Positions 33,675 through 56,238 are shown, counted from the stretch's first letter. The stretch: 64,000 nt of DNA from Candidatus Nomurabacteria bacterium (GCA_020632155.1 JACKGE010000001.1:220011-284010), one strand, 5' to 3'. Program-made: numbers and translations. Notes: a model not told the origin generated them from the letters alone.

Positions 33675-33747
33675 GGTCACAAATCACTAAGTATATTTGT
33701 TCGTTTCACTCCAAATCTACTAAGTGTTTGCGACCCCGCCTCGCTCG
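33675..33747 (-). repeat. tRNA-3'-flank repeat element, copy R1
   Basis: About 73 bp matching 53089-53161 and 56166-56238. Shared blocks GCCGGGGTCG..AACACTTAGTAGA and TACTTAGTGATTCGTGACC. Same orientation relative to the adjacent tRNA in all three copies. Confidence 0.6.
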
Positions 33748-33843
33748 TAAACATCGCTACGGCTTTCGACTCCTGGCCGCAAGGTGCGAAGGCACCTTGC
33801 TTGGGAGCACCATTAGAAAAAACCCGTAATGGGCTTTTTCTAA

Positions 33844-33918
33844 TGGTGCTCCCACCAGGAGTCGAACCTGGATTACAGGTACCGCAAACCTGCGTTCTAT
33901 CCATTAAACTATGGGAGC
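33844..33918 (-). tRNA. tRNA-Arg (anticodon read as GCG) with encoded CCA
   Basis: Hand fold: acceptor GCTCCCA/TGGGAGC, anticodon stem CAGGT/ACCTG, loop TTGCGGT, T-arm CCAGGTTCGACTCCTGG, 3' ACCA. Confidence 0.65.
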
Positions 33919-34053
33919 ATGTGCTTTGTAGACTGTCTGCGCTGAGTGAAGTTCGAGGCGTGCGAGGAAAATAAATTGAGGTGAACTAGACTGTTCAGTG
34001 AAAGTTATTTTACGAAGCACAACAAAGAAATTCTTCAGTGCGGACAGTCTACA

Positions 34054-34524
34054 TTAAAATCCAAAAAATTCCAGTACCTTATGGAGCAGCGGCTCCTCCA
34101 AGTCCGCTTCCGGCAACCGAGCCGAAACCAGGTCCTCGATCTCCTCAACGTATTCTTCCGGTAGCGGCATTACCAGCAGGGTAGCATGCAGCTGTTTTGA
34201 CCTCAGAAAGAGGCGTGGGCCAATGGGATCTTCATCGTCGACTCGGTACCCATCGAGGCTATTGTACGGGTATACCTGTTCACCAATACGAACCCCGCGG
34301 GTACTAACGGCAAACGGAATGATCGCCGGCTCTCGCGCCGCCATGATACCCATGGCGGCGCCGGCTACACAAATAAGAATGGTAAACAGGAAGTTGCCAA
34401 AGAAAAATGCTGCCACCGCAACAGAGATGGTCACGATCCCAAGTATCCAGTACCAGTCAGCTCCTTTTTCAAAGTGGGTATGTTCAGGAGCTTCCCACGT
34501 AATAGCTGTAGTTACCTCGTCCAC
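34054..34524 (-). CDS. hypothetical membrane protein
   Basis: Two TM helices. Acidic C-terminus. Confidence 0.4.
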   Translation of the reverse strand: MDEVTTAITWEAPEHTHFEKGADWYWILGIVTISVAVAAFFFGNFLFTILICVAGAAMGIMAAREPAIIPFAVSTRGVRIGEQVYPYNSLDGYRVDDEDPIGPRLFLRSKQLHATLLVMPLPEEYVEEIEDLVSARLPEADLEEPLLHKVLEFFGF

Positions 34525-34571
34525 AATGCAGTAATTGTAGCATGTGCCGTAGCCCGTCTGTAGGTTGCAAA

Positions 34572-35339
34572 TTAGCGTTTACCGCCACCCCAGCCACGTC
34601 CACCCGAGCCGGTCCTACCAGCAGTACTACCACGTTCTTGATTGGTTGAAGTTATCGTCTCTAGTTCAGTTGAACTAATATACTGGGCGGTATAGGTCGC
34701 GTCTTGCGCTGTTAGTTGGCGAGTAAAGGCGCGTAGGTGGTTGCGTGAACCACGCAGCAAGTTCTCGTACACGAGGGTTATGTCCTCGTTGTCAGTTTGG
34801 GTAAGAAGACGAGCAAGGTCACTGATATCAAGGTCTTCAATGGTGGCACCGACGGTAAGGGCGTCAGTTTCAGATTGGGTACCTGCTGCCACGAGTGAGC
34901 GGTAGAGGTCCGCTAAGTTCTGATCGGTGAATACACCTACAGTATCGTCTGTCACAGGGTCGGTTACATCATATTTATTCAGCAGATCGCGCACTGCTTC
35001 GGTATGCGTTTGTTCACTCTGGGCGATATTCGCAAAAATCTGTAGGCCCCATTTCTCATATAGTGTTTGATACACATCTCGCGCTAGTTTTTCCTCCTCG
35101 CGCATCAACAACAGCCCCGCTCGTTCTTCGTCGGTGAGGAGTTCTGTTGGTAGAGAATCGACAGCTGGTCGCAGTGACACATAGTCTTCAGCAGCTGGAG
35201 TGTACTCTGCTTTCTCGTATTCATTGGCGTTGGTTTCGTTTTGGCTCGGCGTAGGTTGTTCACCCATATAGTTCCCAGCCGCGAGACCAGTAAGTAAGGC
35301 GACGATTGCCGCTAGTATAGTAGAGACATTCATGTTCAT
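34572..35339 (-). CDS. secreted ferritin-like DUF2202-family protein
   Basis: Signal peptide. Blocks REEEKLARDVY, SEQTHTEAV, GSRNHLRAF. Gly/Arg-rich tail. Confidence 0.55.
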   Translation of the reverse strand: MNMNVSTILAAIVALLTGLAAGNYMGEQPTPSQNETNANEYEKAEYTPAAEDYVSLRPAVDSLPTELLTDEERAGLLLMREEEKLARDVYQTLYEKWGLQIFANIAQSEQTHTEAVRDLLNKYDVTDPVTDDTVGVFTDQNLADLYRSLVAAGTQSETDALTVGATIEDLDISDLARLLTQTDNEDITLVYENLLRGSRNHLRAFTRQLTAQDATYTAQYISSTELETITSTNQERGSTAGRTGSGGRGWGGGKR

Positions 35340-35344
35340 TATAG

Positions 35345-35605
35345 TTAATCACTGGCTAAGACTTTCAGCGCCTCAGCTACCTGCTCGTCACGTTTTTTCT
35401 CCGGTAGGCTCTGGCACTGTTTGATGTGCATGAGCACATACTGTTCGCTCGTGCCTTTAAGAGCGCTGCGGGCCGCTTTGATCTGGGAGATAAAGGCTTT
35501 GCAGTCCTGTATCTTGCCCGATTCAAGGGCACCGCGCAGGGCCCGTATCTGGCCTTCAGCTCGGCTAAGGCGGTCAGCCAATTTTTTGTACGCAGGATTA
35601 GTCAT
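35345..35605 (-). CDS. csoR: CsoR/RcnR-family metal-sensing transcriptional repressor
   Basis: DUF156 fold pattern. Cys...His...Cys ligand set (QDC ... MHIKQC). The ORF track begins at 35650. Confidence 0.75.
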   Translation of the reverse strand: MTNPAYKKLADRLSRAEGQIRALRGALESGKIQDCKAFISQIKAARSALKGTSEQYVLMHIKQCQSLPEKKRDEQVAEALKVLASD

Positions 35606-35658
35606 ATGTATTTCGTTGATAAGGGTATACCCAGATAATAGCATTAGCACTTTACTTT

Positions 35659-35676
35659 GTATACCCCATGGGGTAT
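35659..35676. promoter_or_regulatory. candidate CsoR operator: perfect palindrome TATACCCCATGGGGTATA
   Basis: 18 bp perfect inverted repeat in the divergent csoR/MFP intergenic region. It resembles the GC-core CsoR operators (TACCC...GGGTA). Confidence 0.6.
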
Positions 35677-35686
35677 ATTACACTCC

Positions 35687-37270
35687 ATGCTACAAAGATA
35701 TAAATTGGCCCTTGGGGCAGGGCTCACCGTTGGGGTGTTTTTTATATTTGTTTTTCCGCAGGTTCACTTGCGAGCGACTGCTACCAACACGCCTGCATAT
35801 GACCCAATTTCTGAGGAAACAGTCTTCCTTGATAGTGCAGACCTCCCGCTTGCAGTCTCCGGTCTGGTCGAAGCTTCTGATCGGGCAGTGGTATCTGCTC
35901 GCACTAGTGGTGTTCTCACGTCTATTCTTGCCGCTGAGGGCACGTATGCGCCATCTGGTTCGGTGCTCGCACGATTAGACACACCCGTGGCAGATGCAAG
36001 AGTTGTCTTAGCGGAGCGAGAACTTGAGCTTGCACGTCTTGATCGTACGCTCGCGACTCGTCTTACTGAACTTGAATCAGTGCAGGCCCGTGCCGTAGCC
36101 TATAGTGCTGAAGAAATTGCCTTCTTGCGCGCTTCATCAAGTGACACCCGTATTATCGAAGCCACTGACAGTCTGCGCGGGCAAGCTGAACAGAGTCTTT
36201 TAGCTCTAGGCGCAGCACTTGATTTTGTCGACGATAATCGCTCCCTCTTTGACGCTGAGGCTCTCGCACAGTATAGACAGGTGGTAAGCGATCTCTACGG
36301 CTCTATCCCGAAACAGTTTCAAAGTAAGGTACAGGTACCAGTCTCTGGCAGTCAAAATATACAGGCGTTACTGGAGCTAATGCACACCGACGATTTCCTT
36401 GATGTTACAGCAATGCGCGAGCTAAGTTCACTTATTCATACAGAGCTGGCTCTCACCGCTGCGCTCTACGAAGGGGGAGAGCGGGACGCCTACATCGACA
36501 ATAATGATGCGCGTACCGAAGCGTATCTGACAGAGCGAACCGCACTCGTCGAAACACTCATTGCTCATGCTGCTCAAAGTGCCGCTGCTGGCACAAAGCT
36601 CGATGCGGTCCTTGAAGACGCCACGGTGCAACAGAAAAATGTAACAGTTACTGATATTGACCGACAAATGGCTGATGTACAGGCTGAATTTGGCAAGGCC
36701 ATTGAAGCTGCTGGTACGAACGTCGCTATGGCTGGTGTATCACTGGCGGCAGCTGAACGTTCGCTTGGTGACGTGCGGTCGCCATTTTCCGGTACGGTAG
36801 CAGAAGTGTTGGTTGATGAGGGAGAGTATATACAGGCGGGCACACCCATTTTGACACTGATCGGTAGCTCAGGCAGAGAACTTACGGTTGCCATTCCAAA
36901 TTCACTCTTGCCGCTAGTGCACACCGGAGCGGAGTTTAGTACAGACGGTCATGTGCTCGGAATAGTCGATCGTGTTGGCGTTCCGTATGGCGGCCATAGC
37001 GCGACCGCCGTTATCGTACTAAGTAGAGATGACGTCACTGTTGGAGAAACACTGCACGGCACCCTACTACTTGCTGGCAGTGACGATATATTTACAGCGC
37101 CACGGGGGGTTATCCACTTTGATTCAGAAGGACCGTACATCGTGTATCAAAACGGCATTAAAGCCCGCGTAGAAATTGTGTATGACGCTGGTACCACAGT
37201 GTATGTCACAACAGATACGTTTCTATCAGAGCCACTTGCGCTTGCTCGCCCGTTTGATCTACGTCTATGA
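35687..37270 (+). CDS. efflux RND periplasmic adaptor (membrane fusion protein, HlyD-like)
   Basis: N-terminal TM, long coiled-coil region, and a C-terminal beta-barrel-like region. Overlaps the RND gene start by 4 nt. The ORF-track TTG start is at 35657. Confidence 0.6.
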   Translation: MLQRYKLALGAGLTVGVFFIFVFPQVHLRATATNTPAYDPISEETVFLDSADLPLAVSGLVEASDRAVVSARTSGVLTSILAAEGTYAPSGSVLARLDTPVADARVVLAERELELARLDRTLATRLTELESVQARAVAYSAEEIAFLRASSSDTRIIEATDSLRGQAEQSLLALGAALDFVDDNRSLFDAEALAQYRQVVSDLYGSIPKQFQSKVQVPVSGSQNIQALLELMHTDDFLDVTAMRELSSLIHTELALTAALYEGGERDAYIDNNDARTEAYLTERTALVETLIAHAAQSAAAGTKLDAVLEDATVQQKNVTVTDIDRQMADVQAEFGKAIEAAGTNVAMAGVSLAAAERSLGDVRSPFSGTVAEVLVDEGEYIQAGTPILTLIGSSGRELTVAIPNSLLPLVHTGAEFSTDGHVLGIVDRVGVPYGGHSATAVIVLSRDDVTVGETLHGTLLLAGSDDIFTAPRGVIHFDSEGPYIVYQNGIKARVEIVYDAGTTVYVTTDTFLSEPLALARPFDLRL

Positions 37271-40200
37271 ATGAAGATCATGTAAATATAGTCGGACGTA
37301 TCAGTCATTTTTTTGCTGTTAATCGGCCACTTTCAGTACTGATACTCATCATCTCACTGCTGTTTGGGCTCTTTGCGTTTTGGCTCACTCCCAAGCAATA
37401 CAATCCGGAGATCACGCGGCCGGCTTTTTTGGTCAGTATCAACTACTCGGGCGCTGATATCAACGAAGCTAGTGATCGCGTCGCGCATGAACTTATCGAA
37501 AAGATCCAAACAGTGCCAGGGGTCGATGATGTACTAACTGAAGTCAGTGATGGCGCCACCGTGCGTAGTACCGTCATTTTTGAAGTCGGCTACGACGCTA
37601 CCAAGGCCAAGCTCGACCTACTTTCGCAGCTTAATCAGCACAGTTATTTGGCGCGCGGCTTTATAGCACCGCCAGCGGTCATTGAGATAAATCCGGAGAC
37701 CATCCCCATTTTGCAGGTTGTTTTTGGTTCACCCACACGTTCCGTGCCGCAGCTACGTGCCGAGCTCATTAAACTCGGTCATGAGCTCGGACAGATAGAA
37801 GATGTCAGCGAGGTCAGTGTTCATGGTGGATACATGCCGAGTCTCGTGATTGAAATTGATCCACACCGTCTGGCAGCCACCGGACTCTCGGTGACCGAGG
37901 TGGTGCAGGTATTACAGCAGTCACAACTACGTGACATACATGGCGCGGTCACAAGTGATCAATACCGGGTCGAAGCGGTATTTGATGCCACAACGGATTC
38001 GCCGGCTGAGGTCGGAGCATTGTTCGTCGGTGACGGCGTTCGACTGCGTGACGTTGCGTCAGTATTTGAAGGAACTACTGGCCAGCGTGAGTATGTCCTT
38101 CATAGTACCGCCACGGCTTCGGGTGAGGTGGTAATGCTCTCGGTCGCAAAGGTCGAAGGCAGTAGCGCGCCGGTTGTCAGTAGCGCAGTTCTGGCGGCCC
38201 TTGAAGCGTACCGCAGCAAGGAGGGAAGTGACATCTCATACGTGGTTGTTGGCAACGATGGTGCCACTGCTAACGCTGAGATATTTGGCCTTACCAAGAA
38301 CCTGCTTACCTCCATCGTTATTGTGGCGGGAGTGTTGTTACTCTTTCTCTCGCTACGTGCCGCCGCGGTGGTGATGGTAGCGATACCAGTTACGCTACTG
38401 ATTGTCTTTGGTCTTGGTTTCCTCTTTGGGGAGACCATCAATCGCATTACGCTCTTTGCCCTTATTCTCTCCCTTGGCCTCTTGGTCGACTCAGCTATCG
38501 TGGTCGTCGAGAACATTTACTCGCATTTGAAGGAGTGGTCGGCGGTAGGAGACAGCAGCAAGACCCGCGAACGAGTGATTGCTGGTGCCGTCCACGAAAT
38601 TGGTATTGGACTGCTTCTTTCGACAGTGACCTCGGTGATTGTGTTCCTACCGATGCGGTATATCACTGGCATGATGGGCCCATATATGGGACCAATTGCC
38701 TTTTTTGTACCGGCAGCGCTCGTAGTCTCGCTTTTGGTGGCCGTCGTCATCACGCCATTTGTGGCAGCATATCTTTTAAAGGCTGACGAGAAGCCGCTGG
38801 CGCTTACCGCGGGGTTTGGTCGATTCTTTGACCGACTCACAATCTGGTATCGGCGGCAGCTCAGCGCTGTTTTACAAAGCCGCGTTTTGCAGCAACGCCT
38901 CCTTGGCGGCGTATTACTACTCTTTATAGTGTCGCTGCTGTTACCGGCTCTGGCGTTGGTGCATTTTCAAATGCTACCGCGCGCTGACCGCGATCAGTTC
39001 TATGTCTACGTCGACCTGCCGGTAGATACCGCTACCGAGGCAACGCATCAGTTTGCCACTGACCTAGCCGCTCTTATCAATACAGATGCTGAAGTGGTCT
39101 CGGTAGAGGAATTTATAGCGCGGCCGCCAATTCTCGATTTTAACGGCATGTTCAAAGGTGCCGGTGGCCGCGACCACGCGTACGAAGCGAGCTTGCGCGT
39201 CAACCTCACGCCTGCCCGTGAGCGTTCCCTAAGTTCCACCGACGTAGTCGCACGTCTTCGCGCTCAGGTAGTAGAGCAATTTGGCGCCAAGGCAAGCGCC
39301 GTGCGTTTTATCGAGGAACCCCCCGGACCACCAGTCCTCGCAACCCTAGTAGCCAAGGTTTCAGCTGACTCACAGGAAGAGCAGCGTGAGGTAGCTCTAG
39401 CCTTAACCGAGCTTATCGACACCATCTCAGGAGTGGTCGATCCGTACACCACCGAAGAGGACGCCATCGGACGCGTTCGCTATCGTTTTGATCGTGAAGC
39501 AGCCAGTAGGCTTGGGGTGAGTGAAAGCGCTATTACCGAGGTCTATAGACTCCTTACTGGCCCAGAGGAGGTGGGTGAGTGGGTTAGTAGTGGTGCCCGT
39601 GAATATTCACCGCTTATGGTGACGCTGCCGCACGCAGACCAAGACTCACCCAGTGACATTGATACACTGATGGTCAAAAGTGCTGACGGCAGTGCAGTGT
39701 CTCTTGGCAGCGTACTGACACCTGCATACGAACTGCGTCCCTCACGCGTTAGTTTTGATGGGGCGCTGCCGGTCTCGTACGTGACTGCTGAGGTAGAAGG
39801 GCGTTCCATTGTCTACGTGGTTATCGATACCATGCGCGCCCTTATGCGCGGCGAGCTCGCTGGTTATGAAGTTACCAGCTGGAATTTATTTTCACTGACC
39901 CTACAAAATGTAGAGACCAACAGTGAACTTACCCTGCGCTGGGGTGGGGAATGGGAGATGACTCTCGAAAACTTCCGTGACCTTGGCATTGCTATGGGAG
40001 TGGCGCTCCTTATGGTCTACGCAGTCTTGGTAGCTCAGTACAATCGGTTTGCGACACCAGCCTACATTCTGGTGACGGTACCACTTGGCCTCGTGGGTAT
40101 TTTGTGGGGCTTTCTACTCCTTGATCAGGTCTTTGGTGTGTATCTCACTGCCACCGCGCTCATTGGCTTTATCGCCCTCATCGGTCTCGTGGTAAACAAC

Positions 40201-40476: not shown

Positions 40477-40482
40477 CTGTAT

Positions 40483-42470: not shown

Positions 42471-42472
42471 GT

Positions 42473-46381: not shown

Positions 46382-47149
46382 TCATTGCAGTAATTTTTCT
46401 TCAACGTAACGTACACCGTTAGGAGATAAGTGGACTCTGTTATCGATTTGATTATATTCGAGCAGTCTTTTTGAGTGTAGTTTTTTTAAGACATCTCTCC
46501 GATAAACTGATGAATTACTATGCTCAACCCATTCACATAGCTTTGATTCATCAACCCATCCAGTTGTAGAGTGGAGTAAAAGGAGTGTTTGATCTGTTTT
46601 AGACATAGATGAATCTAGTACTCTTTTAACATTACCTACACCCCAAACCAATGGGTACCTTTTCTCTACAAGCGCATCCACTGTTTCTTGCGCCTCATCA
46701 ATACTCACATTGTGAAAAATCCTACATAACTCAGCCAAAATCCAACTTGCCATTGCTAGTACGGTCGTTGCATCCATGTAATTTGGATTAACATCACCTC
46801 CAACATGACCAACGCCCCTATTATTTCTAATCTCATACAGTGGTAGCACCATCCGTGGAATGAGAATTCTCAGGCTCCTATCACCTGTACGAGATGGATT
46901 TGGTGAAGAAGATTCAAGTAATCTACATGCGTCCACCATGTTGTTTGGCTTAGTTGCTTGTGCAGGAAAATTCCCAGATATTGCACCATCAACTACAGAA
47001 TAGACAACCTCACAGAACTTTCCACCATTAAGCTCAGACGGCTCCCAGCGTCTTTCAGAATAATTGCGAACAATTTCACTATACGATTCAACCAGTTCAT
47101 CGCGCAAACCATCGGGTAAATTTTGAAGAAAATTTTCTGGTTTGACCAT
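46382..47149 (-). CDS. hypothetical protein (possible HEPN-like Rx4-6H motif)
   Basis: AT-rich island gene. EIRNNRGVGH motif. Overlaps the upstream gene stop (operon). Confidence 0.4.
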   Translation of the reverse strand: MVKPENFLQNLPDGLRDELVESYSEIVRNYSERRWEPSELNGGKFCEVVYSVVDGAISGNFPAQATKPNNMVDACRLLESSSPNPSRTGDRSLRILIPRMVLPLYEIRNNRGVGHVGGDVNPNYMDATTVLAMASWILAELCRIFHNVSIDEAQETVDALVEKRYPLVWGVGNVKRVLDSSMSKTDQTLLLLHSTTGWVDESKLCEWVEHSNSSVYRRDVLKKLHSKRLLEYNQIDNRVHLSPNGVRYVEEKLLQ

Positions 47150-47151: not shown

Positions 47152-47694
47152 TTATTTCTTACTTGTTTTGGCGCTAGCTTTCTTCTTTGCTGTTTTAGTT
47201 TTCTTTTTCTTATGTTTTGATGCGGCATCCCGGTCAGGTAAAGCGTCAACAAATTGTTGTCCCTGATAAGACAGTTTATTAGCATCACGACCCGTACCAA
47301 GATTAAATAGCCCAGACTGACGTCTCGCATTATCAATATCACGCCCAAAGTTCTTATCATCAAAATTACGTCGTGCTTCTGCAAATACCGCTTTGATGTC
47401 TGCCTTAGAATGTTCCTCCGAGCCGGCGGTCAACTCTAGATATCTCGCAGCAACAGCAAGCTCCTCACCCTTATTTTTTGGGTTTTTCTCTGCAAAGAAT
47501 GCTTGTGCCCCTTCCGTCACATCAGACACGCCAACGAATGGCATTTTTGTCGAAGGTTGCCCTGCGGGCACGGTATTATCTCCTAGTAATATTACCGCTG
47601 CCTGAATAATTCTTTGTCTTTCCTCCGTTGAGTAAGACTCCAGCAATTTAAATAACTCTACTGAAGTGTCCGCAATACTTTTTTGTTCGCTCAT
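47152..47694 (-). CDS. hypothetical protein with Lys-rich C-terminal tail
   Basis: ORF. Conserved upstream repeat (47797-47855). Confidence 0.4.
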   Translation of the reverse strand: MSEQKSIADTSVELFKLLESYSTEERQRIIQAAVILLGDNTVPAGQPSTKMPFVGVSDVTEGAQAFFAEKNPKNKGEELAVAARYLELTAGSEEHSKADIKAVFAEARRNFDDKNFGRDIDNARRQSGLFNLGTGRDANKLSYQGQQFVDALPDRDAASKHKKKKTKTAKKKASAKTSKK

Positions 47695-47796
47695 GGTTAT
47701 ATACGTTATTTATAATCGTTATTTGAGACAATAATAACGTAATTTTAAAGGAGAAGCAAATTTGGGTCAATACCTGAAATTACAGCTCTACCGACA

Positions 47797-47855
47797 GGGG
47801 TCAGGAAAGACGGAATTCAGCCGCCAAGAAACGCCTATGGGGCTTACTGGGTATT
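47797..47855. repeat. 58 bp direct repeat copy A (GGGGTCAGGAAAGA...GCTTACTGGGTA)
   Basis: About 80% identical to 49730-49790. Both copies lie 100-180 bp upstream of minus-strand genes. Confidence 0.55.
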
Positions 47856-48308
47856 TTTCCGCAACGCCAAGGGGGCACATTGATGAAACTAAAAGGATGA
47901 CAGCTATACTGTCATCCTTTTAGTTTTAGAAAGCAAACTTCTTTGCTTTCGTGCCAATGTGCCAGACGGAGACATATTTTTCTCGCTTTCCTAGCGAGAA
48001 AAAAGTCGAGGCCGGGGTGAGTCAGTCTGGGAGACTGACGCAAGACCTTTTGAGATGCTTTGCATCCAAAAGGTATACAGCTTCTGTAGGAAGGAAGTGC
48101 TTAGTGTAAATATTCACAAGGTGAATATTTTACTTAGCAACTTGACCCCAGTACCAAATAGACTTAATAACTTGTGAGTTAACGTCTCATAAATCTCGAT
48201 AAATCTAGCTACAACAAAGTCGTCTAAACCAGACGACTTTGTTGTTATGGAAAAGAAATGCCCCGCGAATGGCCGCGAGGCATGTTAGCGTCCTAGTGTG
48301 TAGGACTT

Positions 48309-49553
48309 TTACTCTTCTGCAATGATGACGGTTCTGGTACCGCCGATAATCCCATAGAGTGGGACGAGGTCGGCACGAACCAGAACAGGAGGCACGCGAA
48401 CCGTTTTCGGGGCATCGGGTGCACTTCCGCGTGGGCGCTTGTAATGTGCACGACGCCAATGTGGTCGGACATACCCTTTACTGCACCGACGATTCGGCTC
48501 ACTCGTGACCTCAGACGGATCGATACGTCCTTTGCCCACGATGTCGCAAATGTGGTCTGGCTCGGTGATGATTGCAGGCGCACCACCAACTGTCATTCGC
48601 GGGCCAGTAGGTGTCGGAACTCTCCAAGCAATCGACTTCTCGGAAAGCGTTTCGAGATAAAGCATCCAGCCGACAACAATACGAATCGTGACACTCAAAC
48701 CTTCGTAATAGGAACGAGTGCTCTCATCAGTGTAGACGCCACCATAACCATCAGGCACGCCACCATGAGCAGTGCGTAATGTTTCCGGCTCCACAATGAT
48801 GGCATCATTTGCACCTCCGATCCTGAGAACGGCATTGTATGAGCCCTGTTGGTGCGTATAGTCACGGTTTAACTCACGGGCTTTTCGTGCCATGAGTTTT
48901 ACCGCTGCTCTCGGTTTTTTCTTTTTCAGCTTCCTGAATTCCGCAATCTCCAGGCCCGTAAAACCGTATCGTTTGCCCGGCTTTGCTGGCACATGAAGCC
49001 AACGAAAGAGCACTTGCGGTGTCCCGTCGGTGCGTTGCGAACGCGTCACCATAACGGCATCGAGCCGCTGATCGATACCATCCGCCGGATGCGCCATAAT
49101 CAATGGCTTTTCAAGCGAGATGATAAACGATTCAAACGGCCAGAGCACGTCGCTCCACCGCATGTCCGGCAACTCAGCCGCTGCCAACATCGCCTCGAGA
49201 GAGTGCGGCAGATGAAAGACACGCCGCGACGTTCGATTCCAACGAAGCAACTCGTATGGAAACGCCTGGTAGTTTCGCAGCTTTTCCGCCCCACACGGAC
49301 GCATGTCTTCCGGCATCAAGTACGCGATCTTTTGGTTTGGCTGCCACTCTTCAATGCTAAGAATCTCATAAGATCCGTCAAGAATCTTGTCAGCAAATTT
49401 CGTATGCTGTTCAGCCGCACGCACATCCTCGTCAGACACAAGTCCTTGCGCAAAAAGCGCGAGCACCTCCAGTTCATGTTCAAAGTGAAGAACTTGCCAC
49501 ATGGCAAGTGTGTTCGCGAGACGTTCGGAAACGTCAGGATAGTTCGATGTCAT
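48309..49553 (-). CDS. GC-rich hypothetical protein (414 aa)
   Basis: About 58% GC. GGAGG RBS. No motif recognised. Confidence 0.5.
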   Translation of the reverse strand: MTSNYPDVSERLANTLAMWQVLHFEHELEVLALFAQGLVSDEDVRAAEQHTKFADKILDGSYEILSIEEWQPNQKIAYLMPEDMRPCGAEKLRNYQAFPYELLRWNRTSRRVFHLPHSLEAMLAAAELPDMRWSDVLWPFESFIISLEKPLIMAHPADGIDQRLDAVMVTRSQRTDGTPQVLFRWLHVPAKPGKRYGFTGLEIAEFRKLKKKKPRAAVKLMARKARELNRDYTHQQGSYNAVLRIGGANDAIIVEPETLRTAHGGVPDGYGGVYTDESTRSYYEGLSVTIRIVVGWMLYLETLSEKSIAWRVPTPTGPRMTVGGAPAIITEPDHICDIVGKGRIDPSEVTSEPNRRCSKGYVRPHWRRAHYKRPRGSAPDAPKTVRVPPVLVRADLVPLYGIIGGTRTVIIAEE

Positions 49554-49729
49554 CTGACACCTCCTTCGTCAAGTTGTAGAGAACAGGTTTACTAGGCGGA
49601 ACGATACCACAGAAGTGCTATTTGTCTATACTTCGCGTTCGATCTCAGAGAAATAAGAACCAGATGCAATTTGCTTGAACTATGCCGAATGCAGTTGCAA
49701 AAGTCAAAGACTACCTCTACTGAAAGGAA

Positions 49730-49790
49730 AGGGGTCAGAAAAGAGCGACATCAGCCCCAAAGAAACGCTTGTGGTACTTGCTGGGTAAAG
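49730..49790. repeat. 58 bp direct repeat copy B
   Basis: See copy A. Confidence 0.55.
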
Positions 49791-49895
49791 GATCACTGTA
49801 ACAAACGTACTTTTGAAACGTCTGTACCAATAGCTGCGCGGCAGCGAAATTTTTGTTAATCTTACACGTACTATTTACCACACTAGCCATATTTC

Positions 49896-50648: not shown

Positions 50649-50671
50649 GGAGGGGAGTGAAAAGTAAGACA

Positions 50672-50700
50672 AAAACGCGGCGCTTTGCGCCGCGTTTTTT
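50672..50700. terminator. bidirectional terminator
   Basis: AAAAACGCGGCGCTTTGCGCCGCGTTTTTT. Confidence 0.7.
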
Positions 50701-50754
50701 GTTTGTAGAGCAAAAGGAAAGGCCGGCGGTGGAACGCCGGCCATTTTCGTTGGC

Positions 50755-50997
50755 TTATGCCACCAACCGAGCTTGCCGTACTTCGGTGAGAAGACGGCGA
50801 GAACCGCTCTCGAGGTCCATCATGGTGGGCGTAAGCTCCACGACCTCAGGCATCTCCCCGGTCGCGATTCGTTTTGCCGTCGATACGACATTACGGATCG
50901 TCAGCTCGGGATGCGTTTTCAGGAAGTCGCGGATACGTGTGCGAGCTTCCAAGCACAGCCATGTGGGCTGCGTTGGGGTACGTCTCTTAAAGAACAT
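50755..50997 (-). CDS. small GC-rich hypothetical protein
   Basis: AAGGAG RBS 7 nt upstream of the ATG. Confidence 0.4.
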   Translation of the reverse strand: MFFKRRTPTQPTWLCLEARTRIRDFLKTHPELTIRNVVSTAKRIATGEMPEVVELTPTMMDLESGSRRLLTEVRQARLVA

Positions 50998-51146
50998 GAC
51001 CCGCTCCTTTTGCTCTACGTTAAGGGAATCTCAACGTTAACCTCAAAATACTCCTCAATAAAAATGCGTCAAGTCAAGTTGTGCACACGTTGTCTTGGTA
51101 CGGTGAAAAAGCGTTAGAATGTAGGTATACCCACTAAGCAATTTCT

Positions 51147-51584
51147 ATGGAACAAGCAGCATTACGCAGCACGGTCATCGACTTTCTAAACGCGCACCGC
51201 AAAGCCGTGTTCTCTATTCTTGACGAGCAAGGTTTGCCGACCACCTCGCTCATGCTCTACGTCATTGATGACGATATGAACGTGTATTTTGGTACGCGAA
51301 AGGCCTTTTCAAAGTACGGTCATCTCACCGAGAACAACGTGGTATCGCTCTCGGTCATTGAAGAAGTACTCGATCCGCTTAAGGTCGTTGATATGCGCGG
51401 TGAGGTAGAAGAACTTACCCCAGAGGTGCAGGAGGAGATGTATGCGTACTTCAAGTCCAAGAACCCATCAAAGTACTACGTCGAAGGAGCAGAGGACTTT
51501 GTCATGTTCAAGCTCACCCCGCACTTTGTGCGCTGGCTCGACGCTGGCAGTGGGGAACTCGCGATTGTTGATTTGGATTTGTAG
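51147..51584 (+). CDS. pyridoxamine 5'-phosphate oxidase-like FMN-binding split-barrel protein
   Basis: GSG26/PNPOx-like pattern (LATTD-like N-terminus, VYFGT). Confidence 0.5.
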   Translation: MEQAALRSTVIDFLNAHRKAVFSILDEQGLPTTSLMLYVIDDDMNVYFGTRKAFSKYGHLTENNVVSLSVIEEVLDPLKVVDMRGEVEELTPEVQEEMYAYFKSKNPSKYYVEGAEDFVMFKLTPHFVRWLDAGSGELAIVDLDL

Positions 51585-51687
51585 TTTCCAGTGTCTAACA
51601 AAAACACCAGCCACAAAGTGACTGGTGTTTTGGTTACTTCGGCGCACCTTATAGGGTTGAGTTGATAATTTTTTTAAAAGAAAACCT

Positions 51688-51716
51688 TGCATGAATCTAT
51701 GTAAAATATTATATTG
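51688..51716 (+). promoter_or_regulatory. sigma70-like promoter (TTGCAT-17-TATATT)
   Basis: Near-consensus hexamers with 17 nt spacing, upstream of the noncoding locus. Confidence 0.45.
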
Positions 51717-51721
51717 GTAGT

Positions 51722-52078
51722 GGATCGAAAGTCAGGACATCAAACGAGACTCCGGGAAAGGGGGAAGTACCTTGACCGGATCAGGTCATTCGAACGCTAG
51801 GCTTATACCGATAAAACCATAGAGGGTATCCAGTCCCGTGTTGGGAAAGCTGCAAACAATTCGACCGAGTAGCAGCTCAGAAATGGGTTTGCGAAAGCGG
51901 GTGGCTATGTCACATATAGAGCGACGGCCGAGAGGCGTCAGGTTAAGCCGTTAGGTGTAGCCAAGTTTGGAGGCGAACTTCCAAGCGTTGTCATATGCTC
52001 GTGTTACCCATCCAAGCCTCAGGACTATAATGATCCCGCCTCCCCGACAGCGACATGTCGGGGATTTTCTTTTTTATC
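51722..52078 (+). ncRNA. candidate structured noncoding RNA (~355 nt, unknown class)
   Basis: Bounded by the promoter above and a strong terminator, CCCCGACAGCGACATGTCGGGGATTTTCTTTTTT. No ORF longer than 60 aa. Internal hairpins. Confidence 0.3.
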
Positions 52079-52188
52079 TTGGTGCACCATGTGGGACGAG
52101 GTTAGAACTTTTTATCTAAAATAGATACAGCCCCGACCTCCCATAGGGAAGCCGGGGCTGGTATCGCTTGCGCTGCTTGGCAGAATGA

Positions 52189-52977
52189 TTAGTCCTTCTT
52201 GACGCCGAAGAAGCGGAGCAGGTGCAGGAACAGGTTGATGAAGTCGAGATAGAGCGTGAGTGCTCCGTACACGACCAGTCCACTATGGTCCATCCGTTCA
52301 CCGTGCATCTGGCACAGCTTCTGCATGTCGAACGCCGTCAGGGCGGCGAACAGCAGAATAGCGGCGAAGCTGATGACATAGTCCATCGTCGGCGAACCGA
52401 AGAACGCGTTGACGATCATGGTCACCAGCAGGCCGATGAGGGCGTAGAGGAAGAACGTTCCCATGCCCGTCAGGTCGCGCTTCGTGGTCATGCCCCACAG
52501 TGCGCAGCCGCCGAAGGTAATCGACGTGATCAGGAACACCTTCGCGACGCTCGCTGCCGTATAGGCGTAGAGCACCGGGGCGATGGTGATGCCGTTGAGA
52601 GCGGCGAAAATCACGAAGAGCACAGTTCCGGTTCCGGCGCTCATGTTTGCCATCGAGCTTCGGCCGCTGATCACGAGGACCATGCCGAGTTGCCCGATTG
52701 CTGCGAGCCACCACCACCCCGAGGCCGAAAATTCGGTGACCGTCTCACCTTCATCATTGATGGTTTCGAAGGTGTTGAACAGGGCAGCCATGTTCGCGGT
52801 ATCGAGTGCGATGTAGTAGGCGATTGCCGCCGTGATGAGCAGGCCGAGACCCATGAGCAGGAACGTCTTTTCGAAGAATTCCTGCTGAGAAAGGTAGGCG
52901 CCCATTCGGCGGTTACGATACTGGGTGTTTTCCATCTCTGGTCTCCCGTTGGATGTGAATGGATTTGTGGCGATCAA
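52189..52977 (-). CDS. Bax inhibitor-1/YccA (TMBIM) family membrane protein
   Basis: Seven TM helices and the family C-terminal pattern. About 60% GC. Confidence 0.75.
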   Translation of the reverse strand: MIATNPFTSNGRPEMENTQYRNRRMGAYLSQQEFFEKTFLLMGLGLLITAAIAYYIALDTANMAALFNTFETINDEGETVTEFSASGWWWLAAIGQLGMVLVISGRSSMANMSAGTGTVLFVIFAALNGITIAPVLYAYTAASVAKVFLITSITFGGCALWGMTTKRDLTGMGTFFLYALIGLLVTMIVNAFFGSPTMDYVISFAAILLFAALTAFDMQKLCQMHGERMDHSGLVVYGALTLYLDFINLFLHLLRFFGVKKD

Positions 52978-53088
52978 GTCTCCACTTTTAATTATAGTAT
53001 AAAAAAATACCTAGTCAAGGTTTGTACGCGATGAGTGACTTGGTCACCTCCACATCAATATTCTTTATTTAAGCTTGTGGTCACGAAT

Positions 53089-53161
53089 CACTAAGTATAA
53101 TCACGCACTATCGTGCAGATTCTACTAAGTGTTCTCGACCCCGGCTCGTCTATTTTTGCGC
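53089..53161 (-). repeat. tRNA-3'-flank repeat element, copy R2
   Basis: See R1. Lies 3' of tRNA-Val and about 110 nt upstream of the BI-1 gene. Confidence 0.6.
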
Positions 53162-53228
53162 TAGGAAAGGCGCAAAAATTATGACTCCGCCTCGCACACA
53201 GGCACGAAACTGAAGCAGTTCAGTTTCT

Positions 53229-53272
53229 AAAACAAAGACGCAATTCCTGAAGGGAATTGCGTCTTTGTTTTA
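53229..53272 (-). terminator. long perfect hairpin terminator after tRNA-Val
   Basis: AAACAAAGACGCAATTCC-TGAAGG-GAATTGCGTCTTTGTTT. Confidence 0.6.
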
Positions 53273-53281
53273 CCTGTGTGC

Positions 53282-53353
53282 GCGATGAGAGGCTCGAACT
53301 CCCGACCTTCGCAGTGTAAATGCGCTGCTCTACCAACTGAGCTAATCGCGCGG
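53282..53353 (-). tRNA. tRNA-Val (anticodon TAC)
   Basis: Acceptor GCGCGAT/ATCGCGC, D-arm GCTCAGTTGGTAGAGC, loop TTTACAC, T-arm GGGAGTTCGAGCCTCTC. Confidence 0.75.
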
Positions 53354-53448
53354 TCGTGGTAGGGCATAGTATATATAAAACTTTTCATAGTGCAAACAGG
53401 GTATTAAATTTTGTACCCATTACCTATTTATTATATAATAAATAGGTA

Positions 53449-54123
53449 ATGAAATTAGCTGAAAAGTTAAAGGCTCGGACGCTCAGAGTCAAAGGACACT
53501 CAATTGGTGAGATAGCCACTAAACTTTCTGTTTCAAAATCAAGTGTTAGTAACTGGGTAGCCGATATAGAACTGTCCTCAGCGCAAATCAAGCAGCTCAA
53601 AACAAATTCACATTCTGCGGTCGCGGTCGAGAATCGGAGAAGGTCACGATTAAAAAATGAAAATGCTCGCCGTGAACAGATTATTGAGAAAGCAAAAAGC
53701 GAAGTCAACAAACCTACGGCCCAAGAGTTATTTTTTCTTGGTGTAGCCTTGTATTGGGGCGAAGGAACCAAGAAAAAGCGAGGAGTGGTTGAGTTTACAA
53801 ACAGTGATCCAAAAGTAGTTGAAGTAATGATGCGATTCTTCAGGGATGTATGTAGTGTTCCTGAGAAAAAGTTTCGTGGGCATGTCTATATTCACGAACA
53901 TTTATCGATTGAGAAGGCAGAACAATACTGGAGTCGAGTTGCCCGTATCCCGCGAAGACAGTTTTATAAAACTTCCATTCAACACAATCGCACTCGTCTT
54001 AAAAAAGACACTCTAACGAAAGGCACCTTTGCAATTTCTATTTGTGACACTGAACTAAAATTACGTATATTGGGTTGGATAGAAGGGGTTTACCAGACAA
54101 CAACTGTTCAAAGTTGTGAGTGA
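53449..54123 (+). CDS. HTH-containing LAGLIDADG-like endonuclease paralog
   Basis: N-terminal HTH homologous to the one in 10461-11291 (HSIGEIATKLSVSKSSVSNW versus HTLNEIVQITGRSKTTVYFH). LFFLGVALYWGEGTK motif. Confidence 0.45.
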   Translation: MKLAEKLKARTLRVKGHSIGEIATKLSVSKSSVSNWVADIELSSAQIKQLKTNSHSAVAVENRRRSRLKNENARREQIIEKAKSEVNKPTAQELFFLGVALYWGEGTKKKRGVVEFTNSDPKVVEVMMRFFRDVCSVPEKKFRGHVYIHEHLSIEKAEQYWSRVARIPRRQFYKTSIQHNRTRLKKDTLTKGTFAISICDTELKLRILGWIEGVYQTTTVQSCE

Positions 54124-54150
54124 GGTCACTCGTAGTACTATTATGGTTGT

Positions 54151-54426
54151 ATGATCGAGATGTATTGTGTGGTGTCGGGAAAGGTCCAGCGAGTGGCGTA
54201 TCGTGCTTTTGTGCAGGATTCAGCTGGCACTCTTGGAGTTGTCGGCTGGGTGCGCAACTTGCCGGATGGCAGTGTTGAGTTGGTGGCTCAAGGACCAAGC
54301 GATGTACTGAAAGAATTCGTGGAGTATCTCCATGAGGGCTCGCTGATGGCCAAGGTCGAGTCGGTCTCAATTGACTGGCGTAGTGTTAAACGGCCGCTTG
54401 ATGATTTTTCTATCAAACATGATTGA
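54151..54426 (+). CDS. acyP: acylphosphatase
   Basis: VSGKVQRVAYRAF and GWVRNLPDGSVE motifs. Confidence 0.8.
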   Translation: MIEMYCVVSGKVQRVAYRAFVQDSAGTLGVVGWVRNLPDGSVELVAQGPSDVLKEFVEYLHEGSLMAKVESVSIDWRSVKRPLDDFSIKHD

Positions 54427-55165
54427 GCCAGAGATACTATTTGAAGACGCTAATGTAATCGTGGTGAATAAACCAGTCGGTTTGATGGTGCACGAGGACG
54501 GAGTCTCCAAGGAGGAGACGGTGGTGGACTGGCTCCTTAGCCGCGCGCCGGAGGCGCGCGGCGTCGGCGAAGCGGGCTATTCACCAAAAGGTGAGGTGCT
54601 AGAGCGTTCAGGCGTAGTACACCGCCTCGACCGCGACACTTCGGGTGTACTTATATTAGCGAAGAACCAAGAGGCTTTTGTTCACCTGAAAGCCCAGTTT
54701 AAAGACCGGCAGGTCAAAAAGGAGTATGTCGCCTTGGTCTACGGAACATTACCCGAAGAACGCGGTGTTATTGACCGCCCCATAGGACGCAGCGCCAGTG
54801 ACTTCCGCAAACGTTCCGCTGAGCGCGGCGCCAAAGGAACGCTCCGCGAAGCAATCACCCATTATGAACGTCTAGAAGAAGGTCAGTACGAAGGCGAAAC
54901 CTTTTCTCTCGTGCGACTACTCCCTAAGACCGGCCGTACACACCAGCTGCGTGTTCACTTAAAGGCCATTGGGAGGCCGATTGTAGGTGATAGCTTGTAT
55001 GCAGGCAAAAAACGAGAAACCTCTAATAATATAGGACTTGAACGTCTGGCTCTTCATGCTGAGGCACTGACCCTGACGCTCCCTAGCGGAGAGGCAAAGC
55101 GCTTTGTGGCGCCGCTTCCGTCAGAGCTCGCTGTCGCGACCGCCCGTATTGCACCCATTTCCTAG
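54371..55165 (+). CDS. RluA-family pseudouridine synthase
   Basis: HRLDRDTSGVLILAKN catalytic Asp motif. The start is probably an internal M around 54400. Confidence 0.8.
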   Translation: MTGVVLNGRLMIFLSNMIEPEILFEDANVIVVNKPVGLMVHEDGVSKEETVVDWLLSRAPEARGVGEAGYSPKGEVLERSGVVHRLDRDTSGVLILAKNQEAFVHLKAQFKDRQVKKEYVALVYGTLPEERGVIDRPIGRSASDFRKRSAERGAKGTLREAITHYERLEEGQYEGETFSLVRLLPKTGRTHQLRVHLKAIGRPIVGDSLYAGKKRETSNNIGLERLALHAEALTLTLPSGEAKRFVAPLPSELAVATARIAPIS

Positions 55166-55222
55166 CTGTGGTACATTACCGGAGCTTTTTACAGCGCTAT
55201 TTTTGTATCTTATTTAAAAATT

Positions 55223-55879
55223 ATGACGACAACCCTCACAGGTGTAGCAATATCTCCGGTCAACATGGATGACCGCAAGAGTCTCGGTATCAAAGCCGGT
55301 GACACTGTTCGCGTACACCAAAAGATCCAAGACAAAGGTAAGACCCGTATTCAGGTATTTGAAGGCGTGGTATTGGCCCGAAAACATGGTGATGAACCCG
55401 GAGCAACCTTCACTGTTCGCAAGGTCTCCAGTGGTGTCGGCGTAGAGAAGATCTTCCCGCTTTACTCACCAAACATCGATAAGATCGAGATCGTGAAGCG
55501 TGCCAAGGTACGCCGCGCAAAGCTCTACTACATCCGTGAGAAGGTAGCTAAGGAGATCCGTCGCCAGATGCGTCGTATGAGCTTGGTCTCAATGGGTACT
55601 GAATCAGAAATGGAAGCCGCTCAACGCGCCGAGGCCGAAGCAGCCGCTAAGGCAGAAGAGGAGGCTAGAGCAGCCGAAGAGGCAGCCGCTAAGCAGGCAG
55701 AGGAAGAAGCCAAGGCCGCTGAGGTAGCCGCCGCTGAGACTCCAACTGAGGAGACTGCTCCAGAAGATGACACCGCTACTGATAAAGAAAAGACAGAAGA
55801 GGTTGCGCCAGAGGAGGCCGAGGCACCAGTTGAAGACGCTTCCGAGGAAGCTCCAACTGAAGAAGAGAAAAAAGACTAG
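55223..55879 (+). CDS. rplS: 50S ribosomal protein L19 with long Ala/Glu-rich C-terminal extension
   Basis: L19 core over residues 1-120, then an AEEAAAK low-complexity tail of about 90 aa. Confidence 0.85.
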
Positions 55880-55982
55880 TTGCTACGCAACTCTAGAAAC
55901 CAAAAAACTGCCGGAGGCAGTTTTTTAGTTGCAAAACTACGGAAAATCTTTAGAATGTACCCACTTCGAAAAGGAAGTCTTT

Positions 55983-56066
55983 GCCCAGGTGGTGAAATTG
56001 GTATACACGCTACCTTGAGGTGGTAGTGGCCGTTCGGTCGTGCTGGTTCAAGTCCAGTCCTGGGCA
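55983..56066 (+). tRNA. tRNA-Leu (anticodon GAG), type II
   Basis: GCCCAGGTGGTGAAATTGGTA... Anticodon loop CTTGAGG. Long variable arm. T-arm GGTTCAAGTCC. Confidence 0.8.
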
Positions 56067-56104
56067 CAAAATAAAATCCCCTTCACGGGGATTTTATTTT
56101 GTGC
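56067..56104 (+). terminator. terminator after tRNA-Leu
   Basis: AAAATAAAATCCCCTTCACGGGGATTTTATTTT. Confidence 0.65.
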
Positions 56105-56165
56105 CCAGGAAACACGCAAACTGCTTTGCGTGTGTCTGGACTTGAAAGGCACAGCTATGCCGTAG

Positions 56166-56238
56166 GCGAGCGAGCCGGGGTCGAGAGTACTTGGTGAAGT
56201 ATGAGTTAACGAAATACTTCACTTAGTAACTCGTGACC
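56166..56238 (+). repeat. tRNA-3'-flank repeat element, copy R3
   Basis: See R1. Lies 3' of tRNA-Leu and about 100 nt upstream of the 56342 gene. Confidence 0.6.

Follow-up and report, generated by a model that had tools for sequence, protein, structure and literature searches.

Behind three of the six tRNA genes that ARAGORN locates in a 64,000-nucleotide stretch of DNA from a Candidatus Nomurabacteria bacterium (GCA_020632155.1, JACKGE010000001.1:220011-284010; hereafter the window, meaning the whole stretch) stands a copy of one repeat. What is this repeat, and how did it come to lie at the ends of tRNA genes? A first-pass annotation, made from the sequence alone, had described a core of ~75 bp in three copies, R1, R2 and R3, and had suggested a regulatory module, a small RNA, an element resembling MITEs (transposable elements of the miniature, inverted-repeat kind) or remnants of attachment sites. 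We find that each copy is part of a longer unit with covarying helices, which supplies a replacement for the 3′ end of the gene it follows, carries a segment complementary to its own insertion site and is bordered on its right by the displaced gene end. We judge it rather more probable than improbable that these units represent a Patescibacteria-wide family of small, non-autonomous insertion elements that restore their target, find it by base pairing and act as a folded single strand.

A folded unit behind three tRNA genes

An nhmmer profile built from R1, R2 and R3 returned all three as related copies (E 5.6e-26, 1.4e-25 and 1.3e-23; next match E 0.5), and two 21-28-mers taken from the repeat had no match in 100 shuffles of the window. 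As had been claimed, the copies lie downstream of tRNA-Arg, tRNA-Val and tRNA-Leu, respectively, each in the orientation of its tRNA; no copy was found at the remaining three window tRNAs (Lys, Ser and Arg-tct). Measured from the insertion point to a terminal ...GTGAC, the full units of R1, R2 and R3 are 188, 201 and 189 nt long rather than ~75 bp, and the position first given for R2 (53089-53161) was about 10 nt off, since pattern matches place the equivalent core at 53079-53148.

Across its copies the element measures ~160-250 nt and is highly folded. Read in the direction of the tRNA, each copy starts with the tRNA 3′ part; one or two hairpins come next, then a stretch complementary to that 3′ part, the helices P2 and P3, and a short, degraded copy of the tRNA 3′ part. 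The unit itself contains, in order, a copy of the gene's 3′ end (B-new), often a terminator-like hairpin, a guide (b′) of 10-20 nt that is complementary to the uninterrupted target from position -2 to about +8 to +20, and then P2, a conserved AGNCGGAG...CGAG-N′-CGGGG block, and P3, a long hairpin ending in ...CGTGAC; a second copy of the target gene's 3′ part (B-old) follows directly after GTGAC. In the modelled fold B-new pairs with b′ as a stem P1, and the bases of the three hairpins P1, P2 and P3 would meet at one three-way junction at which the two ends of the unit abut. The ACTTAGT half-sites, read at first as a direct repeat, are the two arms of the single long imperfect hairpin P3, in which ACUUAGU faces ACUUAGU around a central U.U. 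Similarly, the GCCCAGG beside R3 had been taken for a duplicated tRNA 5′ segment and is really TGCCCAGG (56102-56109), the reverse complement of the tRNA 3′ acceptor strand CCTGGGCA; its likeness to the tRNA 5′ end comes merely from the self-complementarity of the acceptor stem. The parts of the window copies are listed below, where a slash within a sequence marks the insertion point or unit end, as it does throughout.

33844-33918, minus strand: tRNA-Arg(gcg), target gene of R1 (ARAGORN; Rfam tRNA, 65.6 bits)
33676-33863, minus strand: R1 unit, 188 nt (alignment and structure; model match 33668-33784, 107.2 bits, E 8e-24)
33843-33863, minus strand: R1 B-new, the new tRNA-Arg 3′ end within the unit (last 21 nt, T-loop C56 to CCA)
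33813-33842, minus strand: R1 terminator-like hairpin
33803-33812, minus strand: R1 b2′, complement of the acceptor 3′ strand plus CCA
33780-33801, minus strand: R1 hairpin hp2
33765-33776, minus strand: R1 guide b1′, CCAGGAGTCGAA
33738-33764, minus strand: R1 P2
33735-33737, minus strand: R1 junction GGG
33676-33734, minus strand: R1 P3 hairpin, ending in GTGAC
33663-33675, minus strand: R1 B-old relic CGACTCCCAATCC, a decayed copy of the tRNA-Arg T-loop/T-stem (CGACTCCTGG...) directly after GTGAC
53278-53351, minus strand: tRNA-Val(tac), target gene of R2 (ARAGORN; Rfam)
between 53281 and 53280, minus strand: R2 junction TCGCG/CACACAGG at the acceptor 3′ end, a class found in 32 other copies
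53080-53280, minus strand: R2 unit, 201 nt (pattern matches; model match 53072-53212, 94.7 bits)
from 53280 downward, minus strand: R2 B-new
53203-53280, minus strand: R2 P1 arm with two hairpins, one terminator-like and one with a CUGC loop
53226-53270, minus strand: R2 terminator-like hairpin
53203-53225, minus strand: R2 hairpin hp2
53193-53202, minus strand: R2 guide CCTGTGTGCG, complementary to CG/CACACAGG
53143-53192, minus strand: R2 P2, with an optional hairpin TTTTTGCGCC..GGCGCAAAAA
53140-53142, minus strand: R2 GGG
53080-53139, minus strand: R2 P3, ending in GTGAC
from 53079, minus strand: R2 B-old, CACAAGC
55983-56067, plus strand: tRNA-Leu(gag), target gene of R3 (ARAGORN; Rfam)
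between 56048 and 56049, plus strand: R3 junction GGTT/CAAGTCC in the T-loop
56049-56237, plus strand: R3 unit, 189 nt (model match 56127-56245, 105.5 bits)
56049-56067, plus strand: R3 B-new
56068-56101, plus strand: R3 terminator hairpin
56102-56109, plus strand: R3 b2′, TGCCCAGG
56113-56134, plus strand: R3 hairpin hp2, with a CUGC loop
56136-56146, plus strand: R3 guide b1′, CTGGACTTGAA
56147-56176, plus strand: R3 P2
56177-56179, plus strand: R3 GGG
56180-56237, plus strand: R3 P3, ending in GTGAC
56238-56310, plus strand: R3 B-old CAAGTCCAG... (old tRNA-Leu T-loop/T-stem), then relics of older insertions

A pattern scan of one genome per species (CGGGGTCGNNANNACTTNGTN{20,45}ACTTAGT; 185,579 species) gave at least 120 loci, which are labelled here with L and a number; the copy set chosen by this sequence pattern comprises 125 copies among the matches listed, and counts of copies and loci given below refer to the matches listed unless stated otherwise. 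Fifty-five aligned copies, 53 from other genomes together with R1 and R3, were the source of a covariance model. RNAalifold assigns them 28 pairs, 16 of which show compensatory double changes, so that the covariation for which a covariance model had been proposed as the check is present. Of the cells, 94.9% are paired against 75.4% in shuffles. The covariation score reaches 0.518, shuffles giving 0.151 (0/500 reach the observed value) and the score falling to 0.10 or less when the partners are slid by 1-3 columns. The middle pair of P2a is CG in 24 copies, GC in 20, AU in nine and UA in two, and is broken in none. A conserved G.U pair occurs in 54 of the 55 copies. To the window copies the model gives 107, 105.5 and 94.7 bits on the tRNA strand but no more than 31 bits on the opposite one, and both results identify the tRNA (sense) strand as the folded one. 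The fold predicted for 56049-56260, which covers R3, reproduces P1, P2 and P3 (-110 kcal/mol, z -13.1), and the 159-nt unit of L051 is predicted to form three hairpins one after the other, which brings the two unit ends together (RNA parameters, z -8.6; DNA parameters, z -7.5).

Ahead of P2, a clear terminator-like hairpin is present in only 38/90 copies, which makes it likely that the majority are co-transcribed with the tRNA. The hairpins directly 3′ of the three tRNAs that carry R1, R2 and R3 have A-tracts and T-tracts on both flanks and could act as terminators for transcription from either side; the tRNA 3′ acceptor strand forms part of their extended stems, and a simple terminator scan missed them because the T-run lies inside the stem. 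Hairpin hp2, at the tip of the P1 arm or within it (e.g. 56113-56134, 53203-53225 and 47929-47951), has a recurrent loop, AACUGCUU or C-CUGC-G, in distant lineages, which suggests a specific contact and not a generic terminator.

None of the known RNA families that we searched accounts for this structure. In Rfam scans of the window and 18 loci, tRNA and tmRNA (transfer-messenger RNA) alone reached the gathering score; two permissive scans of three regions gave no above-gathering match outside tRNA genes, with the P2-P3 core covered by none, and neither known self-cleaving ribozymes nor other Rfam families, guide-RNA families included, matched over the elements. A hammerhead, hairpin or K-turn junction was rejected, as the strands A/AA and GGG misfit the consensus motifs (compared by eye) and no Rfam match exists. 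Nor does the unit resemble a group I intron with b′ as its internal guide, for which there are only 2 bp to the 5′ exon, a last base C instead of G, no catalytic core and a tRNA that is intact unspliced; an intron catalytic core (P3-P9 or domains I-VI) gave no Rfam match at E <=10 over three regions, the upstream gene is complete without splicing, and B-old is decayed in many copies. Palindromes of the REP or BOX kind and plain intrinsic terminators were set aside on account of the primary sequence, which is conserved across many Patescibacteria lineages, and the specific insertion sites. A sigma-70 promoter inside the element was likewise rejected, given that R3 has no counterpart of the TATACT of R2 and a promoter scan places promoters outside the elements.

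Insertion junctions, guides and displaced gene ends

The insertions fall into two dominant classes: GGTT/CGAAT, which splits the T-loop of tRNA or tmRNA genes after position 55 and ahead of 56, and GGGNG/CACA, one base before the discriminator of tRNA genes; others lie in the last codons of ftsZ, rplB and topA. Insertion is always in the orientation of the gene and in its 3′ part. At the left junction, G occupies position -3 in 47/47 copies and C position +1 in 39/47; the right end is set precisely at GTGAC. B-new and B-old flank every well-preserved copy. In the clean T-loop cases the match of B-old to the functional tRNA begins at C56 and is lost at the tRNA 3′ end (19-20 nt) or within a few bases past it, and the pattern seen for B-old of R1 recurs in 33/88 tRNA-linked copies elsewhere (at most one mismatch in the first 8 nt). 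Because the unit brings its own B-new, the interrupted gene stays intact.

The guide is complementary to the site across the junction. It pairs with the functional tRNA at 11.1/12 positions, among which the two bases to the left of the junction are never missing, as against 7.8/12 positions for B-old. Among acceptor-end copies, both guide bases are complementary to target positions -2 and -1 in 31/32, across eight different dinucleotides. Priming by tRNA, with b′ acting in the manner of a retroviral primer-binding site, was rejected as a general rule, since acceptor-end guides pair with trailer that is absent from the mature tRNA. A target-site duplication by staggered cuts was also rejected: the gene tails of L106 and of the ftsZ copies are homologous, with substitutions only beyond the first 14-48 nt.

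Distribution, mobility and gene neighbourhoods

All of the at least 120 loci but one are labelled as Patescibacteria, as lineages of the candidate phyla radiation (CPR) or as unclassified bacterial metagenome-assembled genomes; Paceibacterota, Saccharibacteria, Kaiser-, Yonath-, Nomura- and Lloydbacteria and Minisyncoccia are represented, and the window proteins are closest to loci of the Paceibacterota/Kaiserbacteria type. The family is thus conserved far beyond this strain, and its tie to tRNA genes also holds outside the window: a same-strand tRNA ends 73-253 nt upstream in 90/125 copies, representing 32 anticodon types, while for 17/125 the edge of the locus is too near for an upstream tRNA to be judged. 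Five copies lie behind tmRNA, five at the end of ftsZ and one each at the ends of rplB and topA. Independently of the pattern, nhmmer found 35 further copies without overlap to the pattern matches, most of them with a tRNA upstream, and of the 89 tRNAs that the fetched loci contain besides those picked by the pattern, 14 carry a copy. The one exception in labelling, L011 (contig JBLHQB010000003.1), is assigned to Patiriisocius sp. (Flavobacteriaceae), carries several copies and has an open reading frame (ORF) that clusters with ORFs of Patescibacteria loci, so that mis-binning of this contig is probable.

In one sub-family P3 is short and has no ACUUAGU at all (L124 2270-2345 and 2540-2625; L009 6034-6123; also L047, L084 and L113). 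It retains P2a, CGGGGTCG and the ...TGTGAC end, its P3 being a plain short hairpin. The ACTTAGT half-sites therefore do not define the family, which is broader than the scan pattern and is defined by P2a, a GGGG-UCG junction and a ...YGTGAC end. At L069 (~4110-4330, minus strand) a short-P3 copy lies upstream of tRNA-Val(gac) with a 24-nt duplicate of the tRNA 5′ end in front of it, a mirror of the usual arrangement.

No viral contig, phage record or plasmid record matched the element, and neither the full-text literature searched nor the Rfam library holds a description or match. Among the sources consulted, the portions available of PMC13011429, on group I introns in Patescibacteria tRNA genes, and of PMC12045711, on TIGR-Tas, do not cover it. 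The combination of gene-end replacement with an internal complement of the insertion site is absent from the RNA-family library and the literature searched.

Several observations bear on mobility. The element has re-inserted in tandem, as seen from exact tandem duplicates in L051 (a 159-nt repeat) and L103 and from arrays in which dissimilar copies stand behind a single gene, in L020, L123 and L124 and also downstream of R3, where GATTGTGACC/ACAAAATAAAAGCCCC joins an old element end to a copy of the tRNA trailer/terminator and AACTCATGACC/AAGTCCGTC forms a further relic (weak nhmmer match at 56285-56303). The units of L052 and L090 are 97.3% identical, while the upstream ftsZ genes are 70.7% and the old flanks 58.3% identical, one case with the signature of horizontal spread. 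In all five ftsZ copies B-new encodes DWGAVPAFLRRSKLK followed by a stop, and in L052 and L090 B-old still encodes VPAFLRRSKLK and a stop, in codons unlike those of B-new. At the same tRNA-Leu, the window, L056 and L119 have a copy of the T-loop type and L103 one of the acceptor-end type. As candidates for an unoccupied site, the tRNA-Lys loci of the relatives L074, L087 and L014 proved not to be syntenic with the window.

Clustering 1,400 ORFs all against all left no family in more than 11 of the at least 120 loci listed, and the largest clusters look, on inspection of the sequences, like housekeeping genes. No Y1 HUH transposase was seen near any of ~160 copies. Six loci with long spacers (L058, L059, L076, L011, L085 and L047) were inspected for an autonomous partner, and the one ORF scanned, that of L058, had no match in PHROGs. 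At L085 a tRNA-Ala that already carries a copy is interrupted in its anticodon loop by a 3.4-kb island (2467-6150), whose ORFs include, by eye, a tyrosine-integrase-like protein of 298 amino acids (aa), an AAA-ATPase-like protein of 418 aa and other genes; this site has been used twice, by different mobile elements.

The window holds a diverged fourth copy that does not follow a tRNA.

47887-48146 (approximate), plus strand: R4 (by eye and from weak scores)

It scores E 0.5 with nhmmer and gives partial matches of 22.5 bits (E 0.001) and 13.1 bits with the covariance model. Its parts are a terminator hairpin, hp2 AAAGCAAACTTCTTTGCTTT (47929-47951), a P2 with the optional hairpin of R2, and a P3-like hairpin (48095-48144), with two extra hairpins between P2 and P3. 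The guide GTGCCAATGTGCC is the complement of GGCACATTG, which lies towards the end of a possible ORF of 53 codons (47762-47923); AAAGGAG precedes this ORF, and R4 stands at its end. The flanking ORFs at 46382-47149, 47152-47694 and 48309-49553 (all minus strand; 255, 180 and 414 aa) gave no Pfam or PHROG match and could be an island or simply lineage-specific genes.

Two other window genes lie close to tRNAs. An ORF at 10461-11291 (plus strand), with a LAGLIDADG_3 domain (E 8.5e-13), starts directly after tRNA-Lys(ttt), and a 224-aa protein with an N-terminal helix-turn-helix (53449-54123, plus strand; homologues in L069 and L039) is encoded divergently from tRNA-Val; both may be homing-endonuclease-like genes that also favour tRNA neighbourhoods. 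Elsewhere in the window (20508-22669, minus strand), a YcaO cyclodehydratase gene (E 7e-40) adjoins a nitroreductase-family gene (E 1e-18), a pairing typical of clusters for azoline-forming peptides (ribosomally synthesised and post-translationally modified peptides, RiPPs) and unexpected in so small a genome.

Readings of the element and its relation to known systems

How might such a unit move? On the reading we favour, that of a target-restoring element directed by base pairing, the element would insert in gene orientation into the 3′ part of a conserved gene, supplying B-new. The unit would work as a folded single strand of the sense strand, with the P1 stem of B-new and guide mimicking a duplex target and P3 presenting the GTGAC/ end at the three-way junction. 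The guide would select GNN/C sites by base pairing, an enzyme acting in trans would join the unit there, and the displaced B-old would stay just outside the unit and decay. Single-stranded DNA is slightly favoured over RNA as the active form because of the terminator-like hairpins that precede guide and core in the 38 copies noted above, the lack of a nearby reverse transcriptase, and the analogy with IS608 guides, integron attC sites and CTX attP(+).

Several points weigh against this reading. No transposase, recombinase or reverse transcriptase recurs beside the element at the at least 120 loci or appears in the window ORFs scanned. No free or circular form was found, one metagenome scan for the unit-to-unit junction returning only two genomic tandem arrays, and no strain-level pair of filled and empty sites was found, an exact-protein lookup of L19 returning only contigs of at most 1 kb. 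Copies occur at the same tRNA in different species (e.g. rplS-tRNA-Leu), which, together with the compensatory changes, would also fit an old, vertically inherited element under selection for a host function. The clear terminator-like hairpin is confined to a minority of copies, so that the element may act at the RNA level, and the reading offers no explanation for how the guide is re-made for each of many targets.

The same architecture could instead act as RNA. Transcribed as the 3′ trailer of its host gene, P2-P3 with its 5′ guide would recruit a reverse transcriptase or an RNA-guided nuclease or recombinase, and a copy would be installed at the matching gene elsewhere, the right end precise at GTGAC/ and the left end made by homology, through target-primed reverse transcription or RNA-guided homing. 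We think this unlikely, but as the folded strand is also the one transcribed, the idea must be taken seriously as a rival; that strand has the conserved G.U, U.U and purine-rich internal loops typical of protein-binding RNAs. Insertion is, moreover, always co-oriented and at the 3′ end of expressed genes, more than half of the copies have no terminator-like hairpin between tRNA and P2, and the switch from host-like to foreign-like sequence in B-new varies (~+14 in L052, ~+48 in L106), which suggests that the left junction was resolved by homology. The hairpin that does stand ahead of guide and core in the other copies counts against RNA, as do the lack of any Rfam match, guide-RNA and ribozyme families included, and of a reverse transcriptase or guide-dependent nuclease near any copy; group II introns, the usual bacterial carriers of reverse transcriptases, are reported as not detected in Patescibacteria in the portion available of PMC13011429. 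If the RNA were of benefit to the host, it could be a 3′ trailer of tRNA and tmRNA units that pairs with the T-arm and acceptor 3′ strand for processing, quality control, termination or stability and is inherited vertically, the duplicated gene ends being relics of its origin. Phylum-wide conservation, compensatory helix evolution, copies at the same tRNA in different species, and the 14/89 unselected tRNAs (3/6 in the window) that are occupied in small, streamlined genomes would all agree with this, as would a guide that stays matched to the functional tRNA and not to the relic. We nevertheless regard it as improbable, because ftsZ, rplB and topA have the same core at their 3′ ends, together with displaced gene tails, single tRNAs are followed by exact tandem duplicates and by arrays of unlike copies, a unit is 97% identical where ftsZ is 71% identical, the junction class differs between species at the same tRNA (L103 as against the window, L056 and L119), and most tRNAs have no copy.

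Attachment sites left by classical, double-stranded integrase islands or prophages, with the core as arm-type sites and the islands deleted to ~200 bp, would account for the direct repeats of the target 3′ end, for tandem accretion at one tRNA and perhaps for the integrase-like ORF of L085 beside a tRNA-Ala with a copy; T-loop and acceptor end are reportedly classical integrase sublocations in tRNA and tmRNA genes. This origin is very unlikely in our estimate. Unit size is tightly bounded (~160-250 nt) with no deletion series, the helices covary, so that single-strand pairing and not double-stranded protein-binding sites are under selection, and a double-stranded att site would have no use for an internal target complement. 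More than 35 different targets share one conserved core, a range not known for classical integrases; at L085 the junction of the island falls in the anticodon loop, which makes it a separate event; and no integrase family recurs near copies at the at least 120 loci, nor is there a viral contig, phage or plasmid match. Of the earlier suggestions, the MITE-like element and the logic of an attachment site are borne out by the replacement end before and the displaced old end after the element, the tandem arrays and the near-identical unit in two diverged lineages. Least credible of all, to the point of being almost negligible, is a cis-regulatory module or promoter for the downstream gene, an idea drawn from R2 and R3, which end ~100 nt upstream of the co-oriented BI-1 gene and 56342 gene, respectively. 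Between R2 and BI-1 lies the gene's own sigma-70-type promoter (TTGACT-16-TATAAT, 11/12, 53018-52991), and R2 is therefore not in the BI-1 mRNA; R1 meets rpsT convergently, at its 3′ end, and lacks a gene downstream; among the at least 120 loci no family of downstream genes turns up repeatedly, and what the element is associated with is the tRNA or gene end that precedes it.

Were the favoured reading true, the CPR bacteria would harbour an abundant and so far unnoticed mobile element, to judge from the share of window and unselected tRNAs occupied, whose survival strategy is to hit the most conserved sequences (the tRNA T-loop, tmRNA, the ftsZ tail) and to repair them with its own copy of the gene end. 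It would explain pseudo-3′ tRNA halves, duplicated gene tails and structured "intergenic" DNA in CPR annotation, and its relics would record past horizontal transfer between lineages. The targeting rule would be readable, the guide spanning the insertion point, and directly testable by retargeting the guide; the covariance model offers a means of searching complete CPR genomes for the enzyme through phylogenetic profiling. Much more tentatively, and with doubt prevailing on our part, the element could represent a new class of programmable, base-pair-guided integration, in which a ~130-nt structured single strand (RNA or single-stranded DNA) with an exchangeable 10-20-nt guide inserts precisely at GNN/C and brings a replacement gene end; catalysis would then fall either to a compact enzyme shared among CPR bacteria or to the nucleic acid.

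The nearest known kinds are target-restoring integrative elements and single-strand transposons that use guides. Among the latter, the IS200/IS605 family, with IS608 as paradigm and palindrome-associated transposable elements (PATEs) as non-autonomous derivatives, reportedly transposes as a single strand. Autonomous members of the family bring a Y1 HUH transposase (TnpA), in many cases together with TnpB, and insertion leaves the target unduplicated. Like these, the present element would act as a folded single strand and has imperfect hairpins with conserved mismatches at its ends; the likeness would extend to a cleavage or target site read by pairing with an internal guide beside the foot of a hairpin, to strand- and orientation-specific insertion and to small non-autonomous copies mobilised in trans. 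Hairpins abut both ends and an internal guide is present, but this guide has 10-20 nt instead of 4, runs from -2 to +N, has most of its pairing right of the insertion point and changes from target to target; the element also carries a replacement target 3′ end, so that this end is present twice, and lacks a Y1 HUH transposase nearby.

With integron attC sites and the attP(+) of CTX phage, the latter recombined by XerCD, the element shares a stem of two inverted target-like copies (B-new:b′) that mimics a duplex target, a reliance on structure over sequence, and a topology, b′-P2-P3-GTGAC/B-old, that places an inverted copy and structure beside the hybrid right junction. An attC site has R″/L″...L′/R′ boxes with the consensus RYYYAAC / GTTRRRY and recombines at G/TT. 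In contrast, the junctions here are GNN/C with a GTGAC/ end, no GTTRRRY was seen at the junctions on inspection and there is no dif-like site; many target genes are used rather than attI or dif, no integron integrase lies nearby and the element is only ~200 nt long. Tyrosine-integrase islands, prophages and cis-mobilisable elements similarly restore the 3′ end, leave the old end as a direct repeat and accumulate in tandem, with junctions at T-loop 55/56 or the acceptor 3′ end and tmRNA also among the targets. The crossover of such islands lies in the anticodon loop, the T-loop or the 3′ end. One integrase family uses one or few target genes, however, whereas here one core serves 32 tRNA anticodon types as well as tmRNA, ftsZ, rplB and topA, without integrase or cargo, in ~200 nt with covarying helices and an internal target complement.

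Finally, the element may be set beside group II introns with their exon- and intron-binding sequences (EBS/IBS), IS110 bridge RNAs and type V-K CRISPR-associated transposons (CAST). It differs from these in having no intron domains, reverse transcriptase ORF, DEDD recombinase, Cas12k or Tn7 genes and no Rfam match, and in placing its guide 5′ of a ~110-130-nt scaffold; we know of none among the three that duplicates or replaces the target 3′ end. The IS110 bridge or seek RNA has two internal loops that pair with target and donor and is encoded beside the DEDD recombinase. The present element has three hairpins around a junction, a single guide and no recurrent adjacent ORF, a distinction drawn from the descriptions of the two. 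As in the tRNA homing of type V-K CAST, which uses a dedicated guide (described in the portion available of bioRxiv 10.1101/2021.02.06.429022), tRNA genes serve as safe, conserved targets. What the element has in common with all three systems is a sequence of its own that is complementary to the insertion site and spans or adjoins the junction, and the choice of site could therefore be reprogrammed by changing that sequence.

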